This document shows, piece after piece, positions 1 to 10,693 of a DNA stretch of 14,205 nt (position 1 is its first letter; each line of letters opens with the position of its first letter). The notes under the pieces were generated by a model, which was given only the letters and a program-made list of their open reading frames with translations, was not told where the DNA came from and made no database searches. Position numbers and translations under genes: made by a program. Location of the stretch: the IMG/VR virus record IMGVR_UViG_2541047928_000015; one strand, 5' to 3'. Source of the DNA: a virus. Taxonomy: Duplodnaviria > Heunggongvirae > Uroviricota > Caudoviricetes.

Positions 1-462
1 ATGACGGCGAAAACAGCACCGAAAGTCACGCTGTGGGAGTTCTTCCAGCAGTTAGGCAAAACCTTCATGTTACCCGTGGCATTATTGTCGTTCTGCGGCA
101 TTATGCTCGGCATTGGTAGTTCTCTTAGCAGCCATGATGTCATCACCCTGATCCCGGTCCTGGGCAACCCCGTGTTGCAGGCTATCTTTACCTGGATGAG
201 TAAGATTGGCTCGTTTGCTTTTAGTTTCCTGCCAGTCATGTTCTGTATCGCCATCCCGCTGGGTCTGGCACGCGAAAACAAAGGCGTAGCGGCATTCGCT
301 GGCTTCGTCGGTTATGCGGTAATGAACCTCGCGGTAAACTTCTGGTTGACCAATAAAGGCATTCTGCCAACCACGGACGCCGCAGTTCTGAAAGCCAATA
401 ATTCACAGGTGTTTTTTCCCATCCTGTGGTTTCCTTGGCGTTTTCTAGGTTTTTTCAGATAG
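1..462 (+). pseudogene. malX: PTS system EIICB component, glucose/maltose family (MalX-like), N-terminal ~135 codons only; frame then runs into unrelated sequence and stops after 18 more codons
   Basis: Translation MTAKTAPKVTLWEFFQQLGKTFMLPVALLSFCGIMLGIGSS... reads as the N-terminal membrane domain of a PTS EIIC protein and matches my recollection of E. coli MalX. An EIIC domain needs ~350 aa, so a 153-aa product is truncated. The C-terminal 18 residues (SQVFFPILWFPWRFLGFFR) are not transporter-like. Sequence character changes at about nt 406. Confidence 0.55.
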
Positions 463-810
463 TTGCATTTTTTAAAAAGCATCCTAAGTTCGATCTCAGT
501 GTCTATCTGGGGCCTATTTCTGTCCCATATATGCCCCAAAAAAACTCCTCAACAGATAAGTAGTTTTTTCATGGAGTTACGCGTAAAATCAATAACGGCT
601 GGAAATCATTCAATACTCGCACTATCGAAAAATTTACCAGCCAACCGCAGCACGTTCTTGCATAAGGCGTGTCTGCGGTTTTTCAACTATTCAGATACAT
701 CACTCCCATCACATTCATTCCTCCGCATCAAAGGCATATAGGCTATATCACCTTGATATTTTTCTTCTTCAGATAAAAACTGTTATCTATGTATACTTTT
801 AAACCCAATC

Positions 811-1418: not shown

Positions 1419-1583
1419 TATAATAAACTTACTTTTTTATCATTTTTCCACTTTAACAACATTTTGCTCCACTTTTCCACGACCAAACAACTTGAAATCT
1501 GGTTAAAATAACACGCAACACTATTCTTCTTCCTTGAGTCCGCCCGGAACTCGAAAAACAAACCGAGTTAAAGCCATTTTTCA

Positions 1584-1597
1584 CAAAATCGATTTTG
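1584..1597. promoter_or_regulatory. 14-bp perfect palindrome CAAAATCGATTTTG, followed by a second dyad TTTTGG-GTCTCAC-CCAAAA (1594-1611); candidate operator or recombinase-binding site
   Basis: Seen directly in the 317-bp non-coding region upstream of the recombinase gene. The loop heptamer GTCTCAC recurs at 1724-1730 inside the direct-repeat copy 2. Confidence 0.3.
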
Positions 1598-1718
1598 GGT
1601 CTCACCAAAATTACGGGGTTGCATACGCATTCGTTTATTTTCGAACGTGTACATACAAACATGCACAAAAATAATCAAAATTATTTTCTGAGATGCATTA
1701 TGATATGAACACCAATTT

Positions 1719-1731
1719 CGTATAGAGTCTC
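1719..1731 (+). repeat. Direct repeat copy 2, CGTATAGAGTCTC, ending 3 nt before the recombinase start codon
   Basis: Seen directly; pairs with 811-823. Confidence 0.4.
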
Positions 1732-1734
1732 ACT

Positions 1735-2325
1735 ATGTCTCGAATTTTTGCTTACTGTCGGATATCAACGCTGGATCAGACCACCGAAAATCAACGCCGG
1801 GAAATCGAAAGTGCAGGTTTTAACATCAAATCTCAGCAAATAATCGAAGAACACATTAGCGGCTCAGCAGCAACCAGTGAGCGTCCTGGTTTTAACCGGT
1901 TGCTTGCTCGCCTGAAATGTGGTGATCAATTGATTGTGACAAAACTGGATCGCCTTGGTTGTAATGCAATGGATATCAGGAAAACAGTGGAACAACTGAC
2001 CGAAACAGGTATCAGAGTGCATTGCTTAGCATTGGGGGGCATTGACCTGACCAGTCCAACAGGAAAAATGATGATGCAAGTAATTTCAGCAGTCGCTGAA
2101 TTTGAACGAGACCTTTTACTTGAACGCACTCATTCCGGGATAGTAAGAGCCCGCGGCGCAGGGAAACGTTTTGGTCGACCACCTGTGTTAAATGAAGAAC
2201 AGAAACAGGTGGTATTCGAACGAATTAAGTCAGGTGTAAGTATAAGTGCCATTGCCCGGGAATTCAAAACCTCGCGGCAAACCATTTTAAGAGCCAAAGC
2301 AAAACTTCAGACACCTGACATATAA
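1735..2325 (+). CDS. Serine recombinase of the resolvase/invertase family (Pin/Hin/Gin-like), 196 aa
   Basis: N-terminal catalytic motif YCRISTLDQ (Ser10), DRLG motif, E..ER acidic patch, GRPP linker and C-terminal helix-turn-helix. Position beside the tail fibre genes is the classic Pin location in e14/Rac-type prophages. Only about one-third identity to Gin/PinE by eye, so invertase versus resolvase is unresolved. Confidence 0.9.
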
Positions 2326-2422
2326 AAAATAATCTCGGTGTGAGATGCTTTACGTCTTCCAAGCCCCCTTCCTTGCCGTAAATGGAAAGATACATCTAAT
2401 TATAGAATTTATATGTTTTACC

Positions 2423-2542
2423 CTACGGCAGTGCTGGCCATTCAATATCCTGTGCAGTTGACGTATCAACACGGTTCAGCAATACCCGATACTTTTTCCA
2501 TGCTTCCAGCAACGAGATTTCTTCCTCCGTTGCATATACAGC
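2423..2542 (-). pseudogene. tfa: Fossil 3-prime end of tail fibre assembly gene tfa (last 39 codons, no start codon)
   Basis: Minus-strand translation [39 protein letters not shown]-stop is nearly identical to the lambda Tfa C-terminus as I recall it (...[34 protein letters not shown]...). It is preceded in frame by TGA at 2543-2545, and upstream sequence shows no Tfa similarity in any frame I read. Confidence 0.7.
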
Positions 2543-2552
2543 TCACCTTTTT

Positions 2553-2876
2553 TCACCCACGATTAACCAACAGCCAGACCAGCAGACACGCCACCACCGG
2601 CACAGCAAAATCTATCAGGCTTGCCACATCCCAAACACGCGGATCAAAACCGCCCCACCACGGCATGTTAATCCGCTTGCAATGCCCGAACATTTCAATC
2701 CAGCGATATTCTGCCTGGGTGTGTTCCCGCGCAATGAAGAATGTACAACCGGCTATCGCCCCGTAAGCCCAGTTTCCGGTAAAAAGACCAACCAGTACCT
2801 GCGCAGCCACAGCACAAAGCGCATGAAGAAAAGGTGTTATATCCATTTTCATCCTACCCAATAAAACGGGGCGCAT
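2553..2876 (-). CDS. Hypothetical small membrane protein, 107 aa, 2-3 predicted TM segments
   Basis: ORF track. Hydrophobic stretches ITPFLHALCAVAAQVLVGLFTG / AYGAIAGCTFFIA / VASLIDFAVPVVACLLVWLLV. Starts 12 nt downstream of the orf346 stop, so probably co-transcribed. No family recognised. Confidence 0.5.
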   Translation of the reverse strand: MRPVLLGRMKMDITPFLHALCAVAAQVLVGLFTGNWAYGAIAGCTFFIAREHTQAEYRWIEMFGHCKRINMPWWGGFDPRVWDVASLIDFAVPVVACLLVWLLVNRG

Positions 2877-2887
2877 AGCCCTTAATA

Positions 2888-3928
2888 TTATTTAGACGCA
2901 AGCGTCGCCTCAATTGCAGATAATCTTTGCCTTAATTCTGCGTTTTCTTCTTCCAGTACTGTTATTCTGTCGTCTGACTCTCTGGCTACCTGAACAAGCA
3001 AGCCAGTAACACCAGAATAATCTACTGTGTAATAACGTTCACCTTCTTCACCTTCCGATCCGCTTGCACCGTCCTGATATTTCATTGCGGAACCGACAAC
3101 TTCTGGGATTGCTTCCAGAGCTTCCTGTGCAATGACACCTGCATAGGGCATACCGTTTTCTTTAAGCGTGTATGTATAGCCGTTCATTTTACGGATGCGG
3201 TCGGTTGCATTATCGATCACCTGAATGTTGTCTTTCAGATCCCGGTCGGAATGCTGGTTAAATGCGGTGGCATGACATGCACCATTAACGCTTAACATAT
3301 AGGTGTTATCGGTATTTTTCTGCGCATAGAACATATACGCGCCACCATCAGCACCAACTTCATATACAACCGGACGGGTAGAGTTACCCCACAAACTAGT
3401 AGTAGCGCCAGAATGAGCGGTCCCCTGTGTGTTTAATGTCATGGTTGACCCATGATTGGCATATTTGATTTGTAATGTGTCTGTGCAGTCAAACTTAATA
3501 AGCGCGTTACTTCCCCGCACACCATACGACATGAGACAGTTCCCCATCTTAAGGTAACCATCACTGCCTGGAAAAATTAATGTTCCGCCGTAAAGATCGC
3601 TAAAATCCCAAAAGATACCTTTTGTTCCATTGTGTGTGACAATCCTTGTCATTGTATCTTTTGTACCGTCAATATTTTTTCTGGTGTACATCTCACTATA
3701 AGCGTTTTCGGTTTCTCCTGTCTTATTTGACAAGTGAATCTTACCGCTAAATATAGTTCCAGTGGTCGGCAATGCCTTTTGATCATAGATTACATTGCAA
3801 TAACTATTCCATGTTGTTTTATTGTCTACATATGATTTTGTTGCATAGCTTCCTTGATCAGTTTTTAGTTTACTAACATCGGATTTTAGCGTTTTGATGT
3901 CATCAGGAATTACTGTTTTTGTAACCAT
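2888..3928 (-). CDS. Tail fibre / tail spike-like protein with C-terminal intramolecular chaperone auto-processing domain (peptidase S74-like), 346 aa
   Basis: C-terminal ~120 aa (SDRDLKDNIQVIDNATDRIRKMNGYTYTLKENG ... ITVLEEENAELRQRLSAIEATLASK) has the hallmark S-D-x-x-L-K-x-N-I start and terminal coiled coil of the self-cleaving chaperone domain found in phage endosialidases and the T5 L-shaped fibre. GGAG SD 9 nt upstream of the ATG, lying inside the end of orf89. Lower GC than the J gene. Confidence 0.8.
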   Translation of the reverse strand: MVTKTVIPDDIKTLKSDVSKLKTDQGSYATKSYVDNKTTWNSYCNVIYDQKALPTTGTIFSGKIHLSNKTGETENAYSEMYTRKNIDGTKDTMTRIVTHNGTKGIFWDFSDLYGGTLIFPGSDGYLKMGNCLMSYGVRGSNALIKFDCTDTLQIKYANHGSTMTLNTQGTAHSGATTSLWGNSTRPVVYEVGADGGAYMFYAQKNTDNTYMLSVNGACHATAFNQHSDRDLKDNIQVIDNATDRIRKMNGYTYTLKENGMPYAGVIAQEALEAIPEVVGSAMKYQDGASGSEGEEGERYYTVDYSGVTGLLVQVARESDDRITVLEEENAELRQRLSAIEATLASK

Positions 3929-3940
3929 TGTCTTACTCCA

Positions 3941-4210
3941 TTAAGCCCATGTCCTTACATGCTGATCTGTCGTAATGAAAGGCATTAAAGAAGATATGTT
4001 TTTACTGCTATCAACAATCCTCATGTTTACGAAAAAACCACCGCGATCAATGCCTGTACATCTTTCGTTTTCTGGCTCCTCGTAATCGATAATGCAGCCA
4101 ATAACATCAACAAGAACCCCGTTTTCTTCTTCAAGACTGAACAGGCCACTGTCATATACAATTGCGTTAAACTGTTCTCTGTTATCGAATCGTAATGTTA
4201 TATCTCGCAT
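3941..4210 (-). CDS. Hypothetical acidic 89-aa protein, translationally coupled to the side tail fibre gene (possible fibre adaptor or assembly factor)
   Basis: ATG overlaps the stf stop (TAATG on the minus strand at 4212-4208). No family recognised. Confidence 0.6.
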   Translation of the reverse strand: MRDITLRFDNREQFNAIVYDSGLFSLEEENGVLVDVIGCIIDYEEPENERCTGIDRGGFFVNMRIVDSSKNISSLMPFITTDQHVRTWA

Positions 4211-6567
4211 TATACGTATTCCTTAAGCTGCGTATCTGACAATGCTCTGTTCCAGAAACGGAGGTTTTTTATATGACCATTAAGGTGTCGTAATCCTGTC
4301 GTCGTTTGCCCCCCGATACGAATCACGGCTGCTTCACGAATATATTTCCATACTGTTTTTGTTTCAGCGCTTATATGCTTATTTGCAAATGAGCATGTCA
4401 TGCCGTCAGCCTTAACCCTGAATCCCATAACGAGATCCCTTACTCCGCATGATTCATATACACGTCGGTTAGCCCCGCCTATATCGCAATACGAATAACC
4501 GTCCTGACTGATAGTTCCAGAAGAACCAAACCCCATAATAAATGGGCCTCCGGACTGGTGATTTTCTGAATCAATGACACGCGGTGCAGCATTATGAGAA
4601 ATAAACCAGTTTTTATGGACTTCCACCATGAACGTAAAAGGCATGGTATACATATTTTTCATCAGCGGAAATTTACATAAATCTGATGCACGAGTCGCTG
4701 GCTCTGTTGTCGTTATGATGAAGGAAGTTGCACAAGCACCATACTCGAATTGCGGGGTGGTTACTTCTATCCAGTCACCTGTTGCAAAAGCTCCCACAGC
4801 TCTGTCGGCTGCAATTTGCAGCTGCGTACCAACCATTCCCCATTCTGGCAGACATTTCAGTGTTGCCTGAAAATATATCCATCCACTACCAGGGTCGATT
4901 TCAAAGTTTGCTGTTAATAGCTGGGCATTGCCACCAGTAATTTGTAGTTCATGGGTCTGTAATGACAAATAGGCGTCGCAAAGGAAGGTGTATCCTTCCG
5001 AGTTATACCGTTCAAAACGGATACGTGCGCGAACATTGAGATCACTTCTTACCCTGAACGACGCGGTAACATACGGACCTTTACTGTACTGATCATCGCC
5101 AGTCACATCTATGCCTTTGTTACCAGCAACTGTGCATATATTTCTCCCTGTTGTCGTTCCTGCTATATCGCTTCCTACCGTGAAACGTCCATATTTAAAC
5201 TCAAATTCATCTGTTGATGATGTTACAGATATACCACCGCTTTTATTCCACGCATCAGGATTAAAACTATTTACGAACATGTTTGTTCGCTGATTCTCTA
5301 TCAGCAAACCATATTTTTCAAAACGAGGAACGTTATTACCTGCCACGGTAATATGCCCGGACTTATCAATATACGTTGCAGATGAAGCCCGGCTAAATTG
5401 GCATATGCCATTAACTGGCACAGTGATTTCATCGCTGCCGATGGTTATTGTTTTATACCCCGGCGCATACCCTGTTATCGCTTCCAGAGAATCATTCAAG
5501 GGTAGCCAGATATCAGGAAGCGGAGGGACAGAAGCAGGATCAGCGGCATCTTCTGCAATCCGGGCTGCATTCTCTGCTCTTGTTGCGGCTGACGTTGCTT
5601 CTGTCTCGCTGGCTGCTGCTTTTGTTTCGCTCGCCTTTGCGTTAGTTTCACTGGTTTTTGCAGCTTTTTGGCTATTAGCTGCCGCTGTTGCAGAACCAGC
5701 TGCAGCACTCTCGCTTTCGGCTGCTGCATCCTGACTGCTTTTCGCCGCAGTTTCGCTGGCTTTGGCATTCGTTTCGCTGGTCTTCGCTGCCGTCTGGCTG
5801 GACTTTGCGTTAGTTTCACTCGTCTTCGCAGCTTTCTGGCTGTTAGCCGCAGCAGTTGCTGATCCAGCTGCTGAAGTCGCAGAACCGGCTGCCGCGCTCT
5901 CGCTTTGGGCTGCTGCAACCTGGCTGTTTTTTGCCGCAGTTTCACTGGCTTTGGCATTCGTTTCGCTGGTCTTCGCTGCCGTCTGGCTGGACTTTGCGTT
6001 GGTTTCGCTCGTCTTTGCGGCTGTCTCGCTGTTTTTCGCGTTGGTTTCTGATTTTTTGGCTGCTGTCGCGGAGTTTGCCGATGCAGTCTGCGAGGACGCT
6101 GCCGCCTGTGCGCTGTTAGCTGCATTCGTTTCTGAGGTTTTCGCCGCGTTCTTCGATGATGCCGCTGCAGTTTCGGATTTCTTTGCCACCGCTGCGCTCT
6201 GAGAGGCGGCTTCGGCGTTGCGTGCCGCTTCTTCCACCATTGCCTCAAAACGACGCAATGCCTCCGGCATGACATCATCTTCCGTCATGGCACCGAGAAA
6301 ATCATTCAGCGTACCTGGTCTGGAACCTTCATAGACGGTAATGATCCCGGCATGTGAAGGCGGAAAACCTTCAACCAGCAGGATAACGCTATACTGGCCA
6401 TACTCAACGTCCATGCTGTAACGCCCGGCTTCATCCGGATTTTCAGAGGCCACCGTGTTCACCAGTACAGTGGTGCTGTTACGCTTTGCCTTCAGTTGAA
6501 TAGTGCAGTTCTGTATTGGTTTTCCCGCACCATCTTTCAGCACACCTGAGATTTTTACTGCTGCCAT
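4210..6567 (-). CDS. stf: Side tail fibre protein: lambda Stf-like N-terminal anchor and Ala/Ser/Thr/Lys repeat shaft, non-lambda distal region ending in a ConA/LamG-like lectin domain
   Basis: N-terminus MAAVKISGVLKDGAGKPIQNCTIQLKAKRNSTTVLVNTVASENPDEAGRYSMDVEYGQYSVIL is near-identical to lambda Stf as I recall it. C-terminus ...RIGGQTTTGLRHLNGHIKNLRFWNRALSDTQLKEY matches the LamG-type signature (G-x-I-x-x-hRhWNRALS-x-x-Q/E-h). Start placed at ATG 6567 (GGAG 5 nt upstream) rather than the track's GTG at 6573, which lies inside that SD. Confidence 0.9.
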   Translation of the reverse strand: MAAVKISGVLKDGAGKPIQNCTIQLKAKRNSTTVLVNTVASENPDEAGRYSMDVEYGQYSVILLVEGFPPSHAGIITVYEGSRPGTLNDFLGAMTEDDVMPEALRRFEAMVEEAARNAEAASQSAAVAKKSETAAASSKNAAKTSETNAANSAQAAASSQTASANSATAAKKSETNAKNSETAAKTSETNAKSSQTAAKTSETNAKASETAAKNSQVAAAQSESAAAGSATSAAGSATAAANSQKAAKTSETNAKSSQTAAKTSETNAKASETAAKSSQDAAAESESAAAGSATAAANSQKAAKTSETNAKASETKAAASETEATSAATRAENAARIAEDAADPASVPPLPDIWLPLNDSLEAITGYAPGYKTITIGSDEITVPVNGICQFSRASSATYIDKSGHITVAGNNVPRFEKYGLLIENQRTNMFVNSFNPDAWNKSGGISVTSSTDEFEFKYGRFTVGSDIAGTTTGRNICTVAGNKGIDVTGDDQYSKGPYVTASFRVRSDLNVRARIRFERYNSEGYTFLCDAYLSLQTHELQITGGNAQLLTANFEIDPGSGWIYFQATLKCLPEWGMVGTQLQIAADRAVGAFATGDWIEVTTPQFEYGACATSFIITTTEPATRASDLCKFPLMKNMYTMPFTFMVEVHKNWFISHNAAPRVIDSENHQSGGPFIMGFGSSGTISQDGYSYCDIGGANRRVYESCGVRDLVMGFRVKADGMTCSFANKHISAETKTVWKYIREAAVIRIGGQTTTGLRHLNGHIKNLRFWNRALSDTQLKEYV
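5580..6125. repeat. Imperfect tandem DNA repeats (three ~120-190-bp units on a 21-bp / 7-codon periodicity) inside the stf shaft-coding region
   Basis: Seen directly: 5747-5823 is almost identical to 5936-6011, and 5630-5750 closely resembles 5800-5936. Protein shows repeating KTSETNA/KSSQTAA/KASETAA heptads. Confidence 0.7.
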
Positions 6568-6578
6568 ATCCACTCCAC

Positions 6579-6631: not shown

Positions 6632-7231
6632 TCAGAATTTATAACCGACACCCACGATGAAACCGTCAGTGCGCCAGTCGCCACTGCCGGAGCCTTCATA
6701 AGCAATATCAATGGCCACGGATTCGGTCGGGTTAAACTGCACGCCAGCTCCCCACGCCAGAGACGTGTTGCTGTGGCGATCGTCATCACTTCCGGTCAGC
6801 ACATCGTGCGTTTTCCCCTTGTTGTCAGTTACGCGGAGATAATCCCCGGAGAACGTCGAAACACGGCTGTAAGCCACACCTGCCATCGCATAAGCACTGA
6901 ACCATTCATTCACGCGTACAGACGGCCCCGCCATCATGCTGAACCAGCGGTTACGCACTGAATCTTCATGCCAGCGGGTATCGCTGTAATGCGTTTTTTG
7001 CTCATCTTTGGCATTGGCATAACTGAATGACGTCACCAGCCCCAGCGTGTCCGTAAATTCATAACGGTATTTCACGTTAATGCCCTTCAGGTCATCGTTG
7101 CCGGGCATATCAGTATGGGTCTGAAGATACCCGGCGCTTAGTGTGGACTGATGCTCTGCTGCGCTCGCTGGCGTACCAGCGGCGACCAGCCAGACTACTG
7201 TGGACAGAATAACAGCACATAATTTACGCAT
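6632..7231 (-). CDS. lom: Lom outer membrane protein (Ail/Lom/PagC beta-barrel family), signal peptide present
   Basis: 199 aa. C-terminal IAYEGSGSGDWRTDGFIVGVGYKF and internal motifs (KGINVKYRYE, SAYAMAGVA) match lambda Lom. Same position as in lambda, between J and stf. Confidence 0.95.
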   Translation of the reverse strand: MRKLCAVILSTVVWLVAAGTPASAAEHQSTLSAGYLQTHTDMPGNDDLKGINVKYRYEFTDTLGLVTSFSYANAKDEQKTHYSDTRWHEDSVRNRWFSMMAGPSVRVNEWFSAYAMAGVAYSRVSTFSGDYLRVTDNKGKTHDVLTGSDDDRHSNTSLAWGAGVQFNPTESVAIDIAYEGSGSGDWRTDGFIVGVGYKF

Positions 7232-7297: not shown

Positions 7298-10200
7298 TCA
7301 GCTGATACTGATGCCTGCGGTGGCTTTCTTCATCACCACAACCAGCAAATCGCTGATACTTGCTGTGGGATACCAGTCATTTACCAGCCATGCTGACACC
7401 GAAAACTCCAGCGTCATGTGACCGTGACCGGCAGGCATATCAATAACGCCACTGTAAATCAGCGTATTATCCAGCGCGGTACGGTTATAAATTTCAGCAC
7501 CGTTTTTCCGCACTATCAGACGGCATGAGGAGTAAATATCAGTATGCTCTCTCTCATGTTTAGCGCCGCTGAATGCCACCGCCGGAATAACAATCTGCCG
7601 GTCAAACGGCTGATCGTCATAAACCCTGACGGTAATGGTCCCTGATGGCCACCGTTCCGGTGCACGGGAGTCCCGGGGGAAAGCTTTGCCCACTGTTTTA
7701 ACGAGATCGCCTTCAATCTGGTTCGCGGACAGTTTTCCCAGAACCCGACAGTTCTCGTTAATCGTGACGTTGTTGAGCGTCCCGGAGTTCGCATTCACGT
7801 TACCGCTGATATCGGCATTTTTCGCCGTCAGCCGCCCATCCGGTGTCAGGGAAAATGCCGGTGGATTTCCACCACTGGTAATGGTGGGGGCCGTCAGGCG
7901 TTTCAGGAACACGTCGTTCATGAATATCTGATTGCCCTGCGCCACAAACATCGGCGTTTCATTCCCGTTTGCCGGGTCAATAAACGCGATACGGTTAGCG
8001 GCAACCAGAAACTGGCTCAGTTTGCCTTCCTCCGTGTCCTCCATACTGAGGCCAATACCCGCGACATAATGTTTGCCGTCTTTGGTCTGCTCAATTTTGA
8101 CAGCCCACATGGCATTCCATTTATCGTTGGCATCCTTCCACTCTTTCGAAAACTCATCCAGTCTGCTGGCGTTATCCTCCGTCAGATCGACTTTTTCCAG
8201 CAGCTCCTTGCCGAGATGGGATTCGGTTATCTTGCCTTTGAAAAAATCCAGGTAACCTTCCGCATCATCGCTCGCCCGACCGACGGACTCCACGAATGCC
8301 GATTTGCCAACGGTGTTCACACTGCGGATATAAAAGTAATAATCATGGCCCGGTTTGATATTGATACTGGCGGCTATCCAGTACAGCCCCGTGCCAAGGT
8401 AGCGGGCTGTGGTTTCAACCTGCCTGATATCGGTAATCCGCGTTTCCGAGAACCAGAACTCAAACTGTACCGTCGGATCATAAACCGCAAGATGCGGCGT
8501 GGCGGTGATCTGAAAATAGCCCGGCGTCAGCTCAATCCTCGACGGTGCTGCCGGTGCGGCAATCCGGAACGATACCGACGCCGGATCGCCCTGCTGCCCC
8601 CACGCATTTACCGCCCGGACTGTCAGCCTGTAGTTCCCCAGCGCCAGCTGCGTGAAGCGGTATGTGGTTTCCGCCGTCCGGGCCGTGCTGACCAGCCGCT
8701 CACTGCCGTCATCCGCTGCCACGGTCAGGCGAAGCATAAAGCTCACCCCCTTCACCACCTTCGGCGTATCCCAGCGTGCCAGCACCTGATACTCCCCGCT
8801 GTCTGCGGTGACTTCGGCAGTCAGGTGCTGCACCGCTGGCGGCGTGACACCATTCACCGTGCCGCTCTGGTCGCCGTCAAAGTGCGCCCCGTTATCCACG
8901 ATGGCTTCTTTTTCCGGTACATGCTGCACGGCGGTGATGGCATACGTGCCGTCGTCGTTCTCACGGATACTCACGCAGCGGAACAGGCGCTGGCGCAGCG
9001 TCGGCAGCTTCAGCCCCCATACGCTGTATTCAGCAACGCCGTCAGGAACACGGCTCACTTTCACCTTCACGCCGTCGGTGACGGACTGGACCTCCACGCT
9101 GACCGGATTGCCACTTCCGTCAACCAGGCTTATCAGCGTGGTACCGGAGGATGGCAGCGTGATTTCACGGTCGAGCGTCAGCGTCCGGGTCTGGCTGTTC
9201 ACAGCCAGCACGCGCCCGCCGATGCTGATCCCCGCATAGTCATCATCGCAGATTTCAATAACATCCCCCGGCACATGGCGAAGCCCTTCGGCACCCACGC
9301 TGAAATCCACGGTCTGCGTCTCCAGCAGCTCCGTTTTAATCAGCCACAGCCCGGCGCGGTGTGCCTGCCCCCGACTGGTACAGCCAAAGGCATCCATCTT
9401 CGTGACGTTACGACCGTAACGGGCAATGGCCTGCGTGTCCTCCACAAGCTCTGTCGCCGTCTCCCAGCCGTTATCCGGGTCAATCCAGTTCACCTCAACG
9501 GCATTATGACGGTCCTTCAGGGCGCTGAAGCTGTAGCGGAACGGCGCGCCATCATCCGGCATCACCACATTACTGCGGTTATAGGTCCACACCTTATCCG
9601 ATGGCCGGTCCTGCACGAACGTCAGCGTCTGCCCGTTCCATACCGGCATACAGCGCATCGCCGAGCAGAAATCACTGAGCACATCCCACGCCTTGCGCTG
9701 TGTGGTCAGGTACGCATTACAGGCGATGCGCGGCTCCGTGCCGCCAAAGCCGTCCGGCACCGACTGGTCGCAGTACTGGCCGATGACATACAGCGCCCAT
9801 TTATCCACATCCGCCGCACCAAGACGTTTCCCCATGCCGTAGCGCGGATGGGTCAGCATATCCCACAGACACCAGGCCATGTTGTTGCTGTATGCCGGTT
9901 TTAACGTTCCGTCCCAGATACCGCTGTATTGTCGCGTCTGCGGGTTATAGTTCGACGGCACCTGCAGAATGCGCCCGCGAAGATGATAATTACGACTCAC
10001 CTGCTGACTGCCGAACTGCTCCGAGTCCACCTGTACGCCAACCAGTGCCGTGTTCGGGTAGCACTGTTTCACATCGATGATTTCGGTGTATGACGACCAG
10101 AGCGTTTTGTTCTGCAGCTGGTCTGTGGTGCTGTCCGGCGTCATCCTGCGCATCCGGATATTAAACGGGCGCGGCGGCAGGTTATCCACCACCACCGAGG

Positions 10201-10693
10201 CCAGATACTGCGAGGTGGTTTTGCCCTTAATGGTGATGTCTTTTTCCGTCACCCAGCCACCGTTACGCTGTATCTGAACCAGCAGGCGGACTTCCGACGG
10301 ATTCCTGTCACCCTTTGAGGTGGTTTCCACCAGTGCCTGCACGCCGAAAGTAAAGCGCAGACGGTCGATGTTTGCCGACGTGATGGTGCGGGTGATCGGC
10401 ATGTCATATTTCACTTCCATACCCAGCACCGTCTCGGAGCCGGAGGATTCAAACCCCTCCGGCGGAGTCTGCTCCTGCTCACCTGCCCGGAACACCGCCG
10501 TAACACCGGAAATGTTGGTATTCCCTTCACTGTCCAGCACCGGCGTACTGTTCAGCAGCACGCTTTTTAACCCATCCACCGGACCTTCAATCGGCCCTTC
10601 GCTGATGACATCGATCACACTCAGCAACTGCGTGGATTTCAGGTTGTCCTTCGCTTCGCGCGGGGTATGCCCCTTACTGCTGCCTTTACCCAT
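7298..10693 (-). CDS. J: Tail tip host specificity protein J (central tail fibre), 1131 aa
   Basis: Length and sequence along the whole protein resemble lambda J, including the C-terminal end ...[32 protein letters not shown]. Confidence 0.97.

Follow-up and report, generated by a model that had tools for sequence, protein, structure and literature searches.

The question raised by this locus is why a recombinase gene of the pin type lies beside the tail fibre genes of a lambdoid prophage in which no invertible fibre segment can be seen. The locus belongs to the IMG/VR virus record IMGVR_UViG_2541047928_000015 (Caudoviricetes), whose whole stretch of 14,205 nucleotides was analysed and is called the window below; the gene is the plus-strand open reading frame (ORF) at 1735-2325. 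The original prediction, made from the letters of the DNA, had proposed that the recombinase could be orphaned by a replacement of the fibre cassette, act on sites outside the window, or be a resolvase. Our comparisons make it likely that this gene and its counterparts in E. coli K-12, pinR of the Rac prophage and pinQ of the Qin prophage, are the tnpR gene of an old, gutted Tn3-family transposon that landed beside the fibre genes and was never part of a fibre shufflon. This origin appears well supported by the sequences; what the protein does at present is a matter of inference.

The pin gene and the search for an invertible segment

A serine recombinase had been predicted in the region 1560-2560, and the ORF found there is indeed intact and encodes a Resolvase domain (E 1e-36) followed by an HTH_7 domain (E 4e-11). 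Scanning the protein against NCBIfam gave only matches far below threshold (Mpi, XisF, CcrB). Compared with the K-12 proteins, it is identical to PinR at 194 of 196 positions, to PinQ at 192 and to PinE of the e14 prophage at 71. Judged by these identities, the gene is the already known E. coli lambdoid-prophage gene pinR/pinQ. Of 5426 complete E. coli genomes, 2869 contain the module covering 1600-2375, in most cases with at least 99% identity, and functional lambdoid phages including 2H10, mEp460, Turner and Tritos carry it at 98-99% identity.

The absence of opposite-strand alternative stf/tfa segments, as well as of a Hin/Gin-type crossover site, held up when the window was searched systematically. 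Every tail gene lies on the minus strand and no plus-strand fibre ORF occurs within the window, while an inverted-repeat search across it returned only short pairs of low identity, the longest being 35 nt at 71%. For crossover sites of the hix, gix and pix type we used the consensus pattern TTNTCNNAAACCNNGGTTTNNGANAA, which had no match in the window at up to three mismatches, so no inverted pair of such palindromes is present there. As a control, the same pattern recovered both pix sites of e14 (one mismatch each) and both gix sites of phage Mu (two mismatches each). A gix-like half-site candidate picked by eye near 1555-1565, 'CAAACCGAG', was rejected, as it falls within the remnant of a left transposon end described below. 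Near the 61% homologue carried by Erwinia phage LS-2018a, an inverted duplicate of the site was not found.

The orientation of the gene was also informative. The 3' end of pin faces the 3' end of the tail fibre assembly gene tfa, so that pin and the fibre genes converge, an arrangement also seen in Rac and Qin. In e14 and Mu, it is the 5' end of the invertase gene, together with one crossover site, that adjoins the invertible segment. The position had been likened to that of pin in e14 or Rac; the likeness to Rac stands, whereas e14 has the opposite orientation and a protein, PinE, of only 37% identity.

We then considered whether the gene could encode an ordinary Pin-type invertase whose invertible stf/tfa segment was lost in a swap of the fibre cassette at 2535-6573. 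A cassette replacement did happen, since only the last 37 codons of tfa are left and the fibre genes match those of Tritos. However, the original stf-tfa is still there in Rac and Qin of K-12 and in the functional phages 2H10 and Turner, and all four show the same pin arrangement without inverted segment or crossover sites. Tritos, which carries the replaced cassette as in the window, likewise has pin in the identical place and no invertible segment. The pin module and the short duplication flanking it are identical in these relatives, the gene is convergent with tfa, and its product has 37% identity to PinE. On the sequences compared, the relatives without the swap appear to have already refuted this explanation, to which we assign a negligible probability. 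The cassette exchange is real as judged by these alignments, but pin was not orphaned by it, contrary to one of the possibilities that had been raised.

The window protein groups with resolvases of Tn3-family transposons

In a MAFFT alignment, the window protein is 35-37% identical to the invertases Gin (35%) and PinE (37%) and 32% identical to the gamma-delta resolvase, while PinE, Gin and Hin are mutually 65-77% identical; the Hin and gamma-delta sequences in this alignment were entered by hand, the latter agreeing with the 1GDT alignment. A search of 5.8 billion proteins returned roughly 8000 homologues and brought out a large family of recombinases that are 59-85% identical to the window protein. 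By tblastn, this family was found in 1894 plasmid records, chiefly from Klebsiella, Escherichia and Enterobacter, and a single scan of species-representative genomes located it also in Shewanella, Photorhabdus, Erwinia, Burkholderiales, Sphingobium and roseobacters. A neighbour-joining tree (100 bootstraps) supported the family, the lambdoid clade within it and a separate Hin-Gin-PinE clade, each at 100; the sister of the lambdoid clade was a plasmid transposon copy from E. coli, with a support of 94. The window protein thus nests among transposon-borne TnpR proteins (bootstrap 100) and, on this phylogeny, is outside the Hin/Gin/PinE invertase clade. A phylogeny of this kind was one of the checks named in the original prediction.

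The genetic context of the relatives was consistent with the tree. In Hafnia and other genomes (L044-L047), a protein 78% identical to the window protein (P0081) is encoded divergently from a TnpA of 994 amino acids that has the domains DUF4158 and DDE_Tnp_Tn3, the two genes being separated by 159 bp of intergenic DNA. Tn3-type TnpA ORFs confirmed by Pfam flank the resolvase gene at three further loci (L012, L024 and L027), and an upstream ORF with a TnpA-like N-terminus is a putative fourth case (L030). The related transposons end in the canonical 38-bp terminal repeat of the Tn3 family, GGGGTCCGCTTGGAAAACGGAAAATATCCTACGCTAAG, of the form GGGG...ACGCTAAG. The element on plasmid p2RM9088 measures 3815 bp and is organized as left inverted repeat (IRL)-tnpA-res-tnpR-right inverted repeat (IRR), with the IRR (37/38) beginning 9 nt past the tnpR stop codon. 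A relative from Shewanella (L024) is an intact transposon of 9.4 kb with a 5-bp target duplication, TAGAT.

About 115 bp upstream of the resolvase gene are conserved across the family. They contain a 26-bp dyad at -115 to -90 (12-2-12, with half-sites TGTACGAAACCG and TGTCCGAAACCG), corresponding to res site I, then a 32-bp dyad at about -79 to -48 (site II), followed by TATAAT and by a third element, GTACACCCATTTCGTACA. Each of 12 relatives searched had one such dyad within 6 kb on either side and no second site. Where the recognition helix of the protein is altered, as in Sphingobium and the Erwinia phage (L029, L010), the motif is altered too; motif and helix changing together is what would be expected if the repeated motif is the binding site of the recombinase. 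The upstream layout of the relatives is, from its sequence, that of Tn3-type res sites I, II and III overlapping the putative tnpR promoter.

Several observations on the relatives stand apart from this argument. Erwinia oleae (L028, about 1270-2652) has an unusual pair of family resolvase genes, arranged back to back and divergently, with an extra dyad upstream of the usual res. On the Klebsiella IncFII plasmid pUSKPC3 (L014, 3966-6588), a family member with an intact res is divergent to a partition operon of the ParA/MipZ type and has no adjacent tnpA ORF, so that some family members may act as plasmid multimer resolvases. In plasmid papers, resolvases borne by Tn3 elements are automatically annotated as 'pinR'. 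From the literature, Tn5403 is a plausible candidate name for the relatives.

A probable decayed transposon around pin

When the features of the related transposons were mapped onto the window, remnants of all of them except tnpA were found around pin, in the following order.

1530-1534, no strand: left target-site duplication TTCCT, abutting the outer end of IRL' and identical to 2369-2373
1535-1572, plus strand: IRL', decayed left terminal inverted repeat, 23/38 to GGGGTCCGCTTGGAAAACGGAAAATATCCTACGCTAAG
1622-1647, plus strand: strongly decayed res site I (crossover site), located where the family has its dyad, 13/24 to the consensus
1662-1693, plus strand: res site II remnant, with 20/32 matches to its counterpart in the Hafnia transposon (L044)
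1699-1724, plus strand: -10 element (TATGAT, TATAAT in the relatives) and remnant of res site III, 15/18 to site III of L012 and L014
1735-2325, plus strand: pinR/pinQ allele, orphan serine recombinase of the tnpR type, 196 aa, Resolvase and HTH_7, with Cys76, Gln35 and Lys61
2334-2368, minus strand: IRR', decayed right terminal inverted repeat with a 3-nt deletion near its outer end, 24/38 ungapped
2369-2373, no strand: right target-site duplication TTCCT, adjoining the outer end of IRR'

Local alignment revealed continuous DNA homology between 1655-2364 of the window and the p2RM9088 transposon. The homology spans res sites II and III, the gene and its stop codon, runs into the terminal repeat and stops at most 4 nt short of the outer end of IRR' at 2368. 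IRR' is the best match to the family repeat in the whole window and begins 9 nt past the stop codon, exactly as in p2RM9088. IRL' and IRR' are the sole window matches of at least 23/38, and they are inverted and flank pin. Shuffling the AT-rich region 400-2600 gave a mean of 0.023 such matches, and two matches occurred in none of 300 shuffles. A 5-bp target duplication is typical of Tn3-family transposition. The TTCCT duplication is also present in Qin, 2H10, Tritos and Turner, indicating that all lambdoid copies come from one insertion. No tnpA remnant was detected in the window by tblastn of TnpA, and a scan of 1400-2600 for promoters and terminators gave nothing above shuffle expectation.

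The relic thus covers 834 bp (1535-2368) and comprises IRL', a decayed res, tnpR and IRR'. We propose that an ancestral lambdoid phage would have received a minimal IR-tnpA-res-tnpR-IR transposon at a point about 55 bp downstream of tfa, with duplication of TTCCT, and that tnpA would have been lost later. The location next to the fibre genes would then be an accident of transposition and not the trace of a shufflon, and such an origin would account for the lack of both an invertible segment and a hix-type site. Between IRL' and the res remnant, at 1584-1611, overlapping AT-rich palindromes (CAAAATCGATTTTG and ATTTTGGGTCTCACCAAAAT) are kept in all lambdoid copies; they may mark the junction of the tnpA deletion or a binding site.

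Decay of the putative res and changes in the enzyme

To evaluate what is left of res, we built a half-site matrix from ten family site I sequences, whose real halves score 12-20 bits. The two halves of site I in the window reach at most 6 bits at the homologous positions. The best surviving half-site of this putative res, which is defined from sequence, is the right half of site III, TATACGAAATTG at 1713-1724, with 9.5 bits; the positions retained amount to 13/24 for site I, 20/32 for site II and 15/18 for site III. No family dyad of at least 4 bits and no second family-type site occurs in the window, and the whole Tritos genome contains none that reaches 14 bits, whatever the spacing. The highest-scoring family-type half-site of the window, TGACCGAAACAG at 1997-2008 (13.1 bits), lies inside pin (codons LTETG) and lacks a partner half; in the entire Tritos genome, too, this is the sole half-site to reach 12 bits, and it is probably there by chance.

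The protein has changed as well. Arg76 is present in 114 of 118 full-length family representatives, and Cys76 is confined to the lambdoid clade. The window protein also departs from residues that are at least 95% invariant in the family, namely by R35Q, E61K, T113M and a few others, of which Q35 and M113 are, like C76, specific to the lambdoid clade. According to the alignment to the 1GDT and Gin structures, C76, Q35 and K61 correspond to R71, R32 and E56 of the gamma-delta/Tn3 resolvase. From the catalytic set of Tn3 (Y6, R8, S10, D36, R68, R71), the window protein keeps Y7, R9, S11 and R73, has E39 in place of D36 as does the whole family, and has C76 in place of R71. At the regulatory (2-3') interface (R2, R32, K54, E56), the family has R3, R35, R59 and E61 and the window protein R3, Q35, R59 and K61. 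The window protein retains the DNA-binding helix of the family, T(S/T)RQTI(L/M)R. In Tn3 resolvase, R71 belongs to a set of six residues at which mutation abolishes recombination and, as with R71A or R71K, lowers cleavage about 1000-fold (Olorunniji and Stark 2009, PMC2794168). R2, R32, K54 and E56 form the R interface, where mutations abolish recombination, and R2A/E56K blocks resolution (Montano et al. 2022, PMC9943657).

These data bear on the proposal that the gene encodes a resolvase, which comes nearest to the mark among the three possibilities raised at the outset. Phylogeny, synteny and DNA remnants agree with it as far as they point to tnpR; the decayed res and the changed catalytic and interface residues point to a degenerate one. 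A working resolvase that uses 1622-1724 as res, resolving phage or prophage dimers or cointegrates, would find the res-like region in the right place over a likely promoter, with the DNA-binding helix kept and site III preserved at 15/18. On the other side stand site I halves of at most 6 bits, the lack of any dyad of at least 4 bits in the window, and the change of two R-interface residues and of the equivalent of the catalytic R71. Lambdoid phages package from concatemers, and they are not known to need a resolvase. We consider a working resolvase very improbable. Returning to the gutted transposon, its recombinase most likely rearranges nothing in cis. The crossover site of its own res appears destroyed, and neither the remainder of the window nor the complete genome of Tritos, a matching functional phage, has a cognate site. 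A remaining role, if any, would be played in trans or through DNA binding by the conserved helix-turn-helix.

Points against the transposon account, selection and gene conversion

A number of observations weigh against the account given above. IRL' matches the family repeat at only 23/38 positions, and the local alignment score of IRR', taken alone, was equalled in 23 of 200 shuffles; the case for the relic is carried by the position, orientation and flanking duplication rather than by the IRR' score alone. A search of 5426 E. coli genomes and 50,697 phage records for an empty site, reconstructed by joining the ydfK side to the tfa side, gave none, so that the transposition event is deduced from the ends, the duplication and the homology. 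The function of the relatives as cointegrate resolvases is one that we infer from their architecture, and the loss of activity expected with Cys at the R71 position is extrapolated from other R71 substitutions. The ORF is intact in 18 of 18 lambdoid copies examined, and the ratio of nonsynonymous to synonymous substitution rates (dN/dS) against the divergent C76 lineage is 0.34. Purifying selection on pin may therefore persist to some degree, the estimate being blurred by mosaicism with plasmid copies. Finally, in E. coli K-12, overproduction of PinQ reportedly took the share of e14 P segments in the inverted state from about 30% to 88%, with accompanying phenotypes, which suggests activity (PMC12529663).

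The estimates of selection call for some comment. The dN/dS against the plasmid transposon copy is 0.15, a value blurred by mosaic alleles, and polymorphism within the close lambdoid clade, at 8 nonsynonymous and 4 synonymous sites, would fit near-neutral drift. In the mosaic pin alleles, the first ~170 codons are of plasmid type, including Arg76, and the end is of PinQ type. Such alleles were observed at 8001-8591 of locus L043 (E. coli GCA_910593615.1) and in P0003, P0004, P0006, P0007 and P0009; their 5' part, which includes part of res and Arg76, is identical to the tnpR of the plasmid transposon, and their 3' end and flanks are of PinQ type. The mosaics indicate gene conversion between plasmid Tn3-family copies and prophage copies, a process that can restore the catalytic Arg, and they blur the selection estimates.

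Reported inversion in trans and other possible roles of the protein

The possibility that the recombinase acts on sites outside the window, raised in the original prediction, has a published counterpart in K-12, although the mechanism appears questionable to us. Kirigo et al. (NAR 2025, PMC12529663) reported that the 1797-bp P segment of e14 is inverted in trans by PinQ, to which they treat PinR as equivalent, and that T2 adsorption is thereby blocked; they also noted that Qin and Rac showed no inversions. PinQ and PinR would then be active invertases that bind the e14 pix sites and invert the P segment, yielding a chimeric StfE2 that blocks T2 adsorption. Besides the rise to 88% upon overproduction, deletion of pinQ lowers inversion and T2 survival, and the effect requires stfP, stfE and e14 (PMC12529663). 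The window protein is only four residues from PinQ and two from PinR. In the same study, however, a pinE mutant was locked in one orientation despite intact pinQ and pinR, and neither an S11A control nor PinQ in a pinE-deletion background is described (PMC12529663). A plateau of 88% would moreover be unlike the ~50:50 outcome of a simple invertase, PinE itself having given 49%. Cys76 replaces the catalytic Arg in a protein outside the Hin/Gin/PinE clade, and with the family matrix the halves of pix do not exceed 6 bits; nowhere in the e14 or Mu regions does a half-site reach 10 bits. Direct inversion of the P segment by PinQ is thus questionable, and we hold an active invertase in trans to be possible but on balance doubtful. 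The effect of PinQ could be indirect, through selection, modulation of PinE or residual activity on overproduction.

Modulation of this kind leads to another explanation, in which the protein was exapted as a non-catalytic DNA-binding protein, either an autorepressor or a modulator at res or crossover sites of co-resident Tn3-family transposons and shufflons, biasing for example PinE. The helix-turn-helix is kept, the ORF is intact and the dN/dS between C76 lineages is 0.34, with catalytic and regulatory residues lost. Family-type transposons with an intact res are present on E. coli plasmids (205 plasmid places), and such a role would reconcile the published phenotypes with the requirement of PinE for inversion. 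The polymorphism would nevertheless fit near-neutral drift (8 nonsynonymous, 4 synonymous) and the pix sites do not fit the family motif. We regard exaptation as rather unlikely.

The changed interface residues admit a further interpretation, namely that PinQ and PinR are a naturally deregulated ex-resolvase, freed from the accessory res sites and kept as a weak, orientation-blind recombinase in trans or as a site-binding modulator; this would be a long shot. It could be based on the equivalents of R32Q and E56K and on T113M at the start of helix E, the E56K change also occurring in 'NM', an activated Tn3 resolvase obtained by engineering. Its targets would be the P shufflon of e14 or the res sites of plasmid Tn3-family elements, with effects such as altering the cell surface and excluding rival phages, and Cys76 would limit the activity to a tolerable level.

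We therefore retain the origin of pin as the tnpR of a gutted transposon, the gene being today, as it would seem, a passenger under weak constraint that is carried along with the tfa-proximal end of lambdoid phages. The gene itself was already known; its transposon origin is a reinterpretation of which we found no statement in the searchable literature. Thousands of E. coli genomes and phages have PinR and PinQ annotated as 'DNA invertases', and the two proteins were recently proposed as the first recombinase-activated anti-phage system. If pin is truly a relic, the absent invertible fibre segment needs no special explanation, and the name 'Pin' and the label 'invertase' mislead, as conversely does the automatic naming of plasmid transposon resolvases as 'PinR'. 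The proposal that PinQ itself inverts the P segment of e14 would then need catalytic-mutant, pinE-null and pix-binding controls. The case would also show a transposon fragment becoming fixed at the accessory end of a phage lineage.

Neighbouring genes and the tail fibre cassette

The window starts with a truncated malX (maltose component IICB of the phosphotransferase system, 1 to ~401), which the prophage interrupts at this point. From ~390 on, it contains the right end of a lambdoid prophage with the gene order of Qin and Rac of E. coli K-12: ynfT/ynaM, then ydfK/ynaE (1185-1418), then the recombinase gene (1735-2325, plus strand), then the minus-strand tfa remnant and tail genes. The malX-prophage junction occurs in only 2 of 5426 complete E. 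coli genomes (matching at least 80% of window 1-700), and other related prophages that bear pin are located at ydfJ, prfC/dinI or ttcA. The tail genes are as follows.

2423-2534, minus strand: 3' remnant of tfa, last 37 codons, whose translation is the C-terminus of TfaQ
2553-2876, minus strand: orf107, phrog_1443
2888-3928, minus strand: fibre protein of 346 aa with a Peptidase_S74 intramolecular chaperone domain, phrog_4563
3941-4210, minus strand: orf89, phrog_1361
4210-6573, minus strand: Stf, 787 aa, phrog_1419
6632-7231, minus strand: lom
7298-10693, minus strand: J

The classical stfR/tfaR genes are swapped for another fibre cassette (2535-6573, minus strand), and the right junction of the swap lies in tfa at 2534/2535. 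The 209 bp 3' of pin (2326-2534) are 100% identical to the K-12 Qin DNA downstream of pinQ, and the tfa remnant is annotated in related genomes as a partial tail fibre assembly pseudogene. The cassette of the window, whose genes are unlike those of Rac and Qin, recurs in Tritos, a functional phage, and in some 100 E. coli genomes. A plus-strand ORF of 611 aa at 8069-9904, antisense within J, is a long frame in GC-rich coding DNA and most likely spurious.

Comparison with known systems

The closest known genes are pinR and pinQ of K-12, with which the window gene shares its neighbourhood (ynaM/ynfT, ynaE/ydfK, pin, tfa) and the convergent orientation of pin to tfa. The K-12 proteins also have Cys76. 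The window protein differs from both by K30N and P33S and from PinQ alone additionally by Q3R and A159V. The prophage site is malX in the window as against ydfJ or ttcA for the K-12 prophages, and the fibre cassette beside pin is of the Tritos type, unlike that of Rac and Qin.

With the Fis/enhancer-dependent invertases Hin, Gin, Cin and PinE, the window protein shares the small serine recombinase fold, a place near phage tail fibre genes and the name 'pin'. Gin is also its best sequence match in the PDB (E 2e-29, against 2e-22 for the gamma-delta resolvase). Unlike these invertases, it falls in a separate clade, lacks hix-type sites and an invertible segment, has the opposite orientation to the fibre genes, and carries the recognition helix SRQTILR where the invertases have VSTLYK/R.

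A precedent for a Tn3-like resolvase gene that stays intact in a mobile element after its res has been disabled is given by Res of SGI1 (Veress et al. 2025, PMC12217951). There, res was split by an integron insertion and is restorable, whereas in the window res decayed by point mutation and the protein changed as well; SGI1 Res was considered as a family member and rejected, and is retained as an analogous precedent only. There is likeness also to the TnpR proteins of minimal cryptic, Tn5403-like elements of the Tn3 family (Tn3 and gamma-delta being the models that have been studied), which share the Resolvase and HTH_7 domains and 78-85% identity with the window protein and are encoded divergently from Tn3-type tnpA. 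Their elements have 38-bp GGGG...TAAG repeats, a 5-bp duplication, an IRR at +9 and a three-subsite res over the promoter, of which the window has a putative decayed homologue. Site I measures 26 bp (12-2-12) in this family and 28 bp in Tn3. In the window, unlike in such elements, tnpA is gone, the inverted repeats and res are decayed, and the equivalents of R71C, R32Q and E56K are present.

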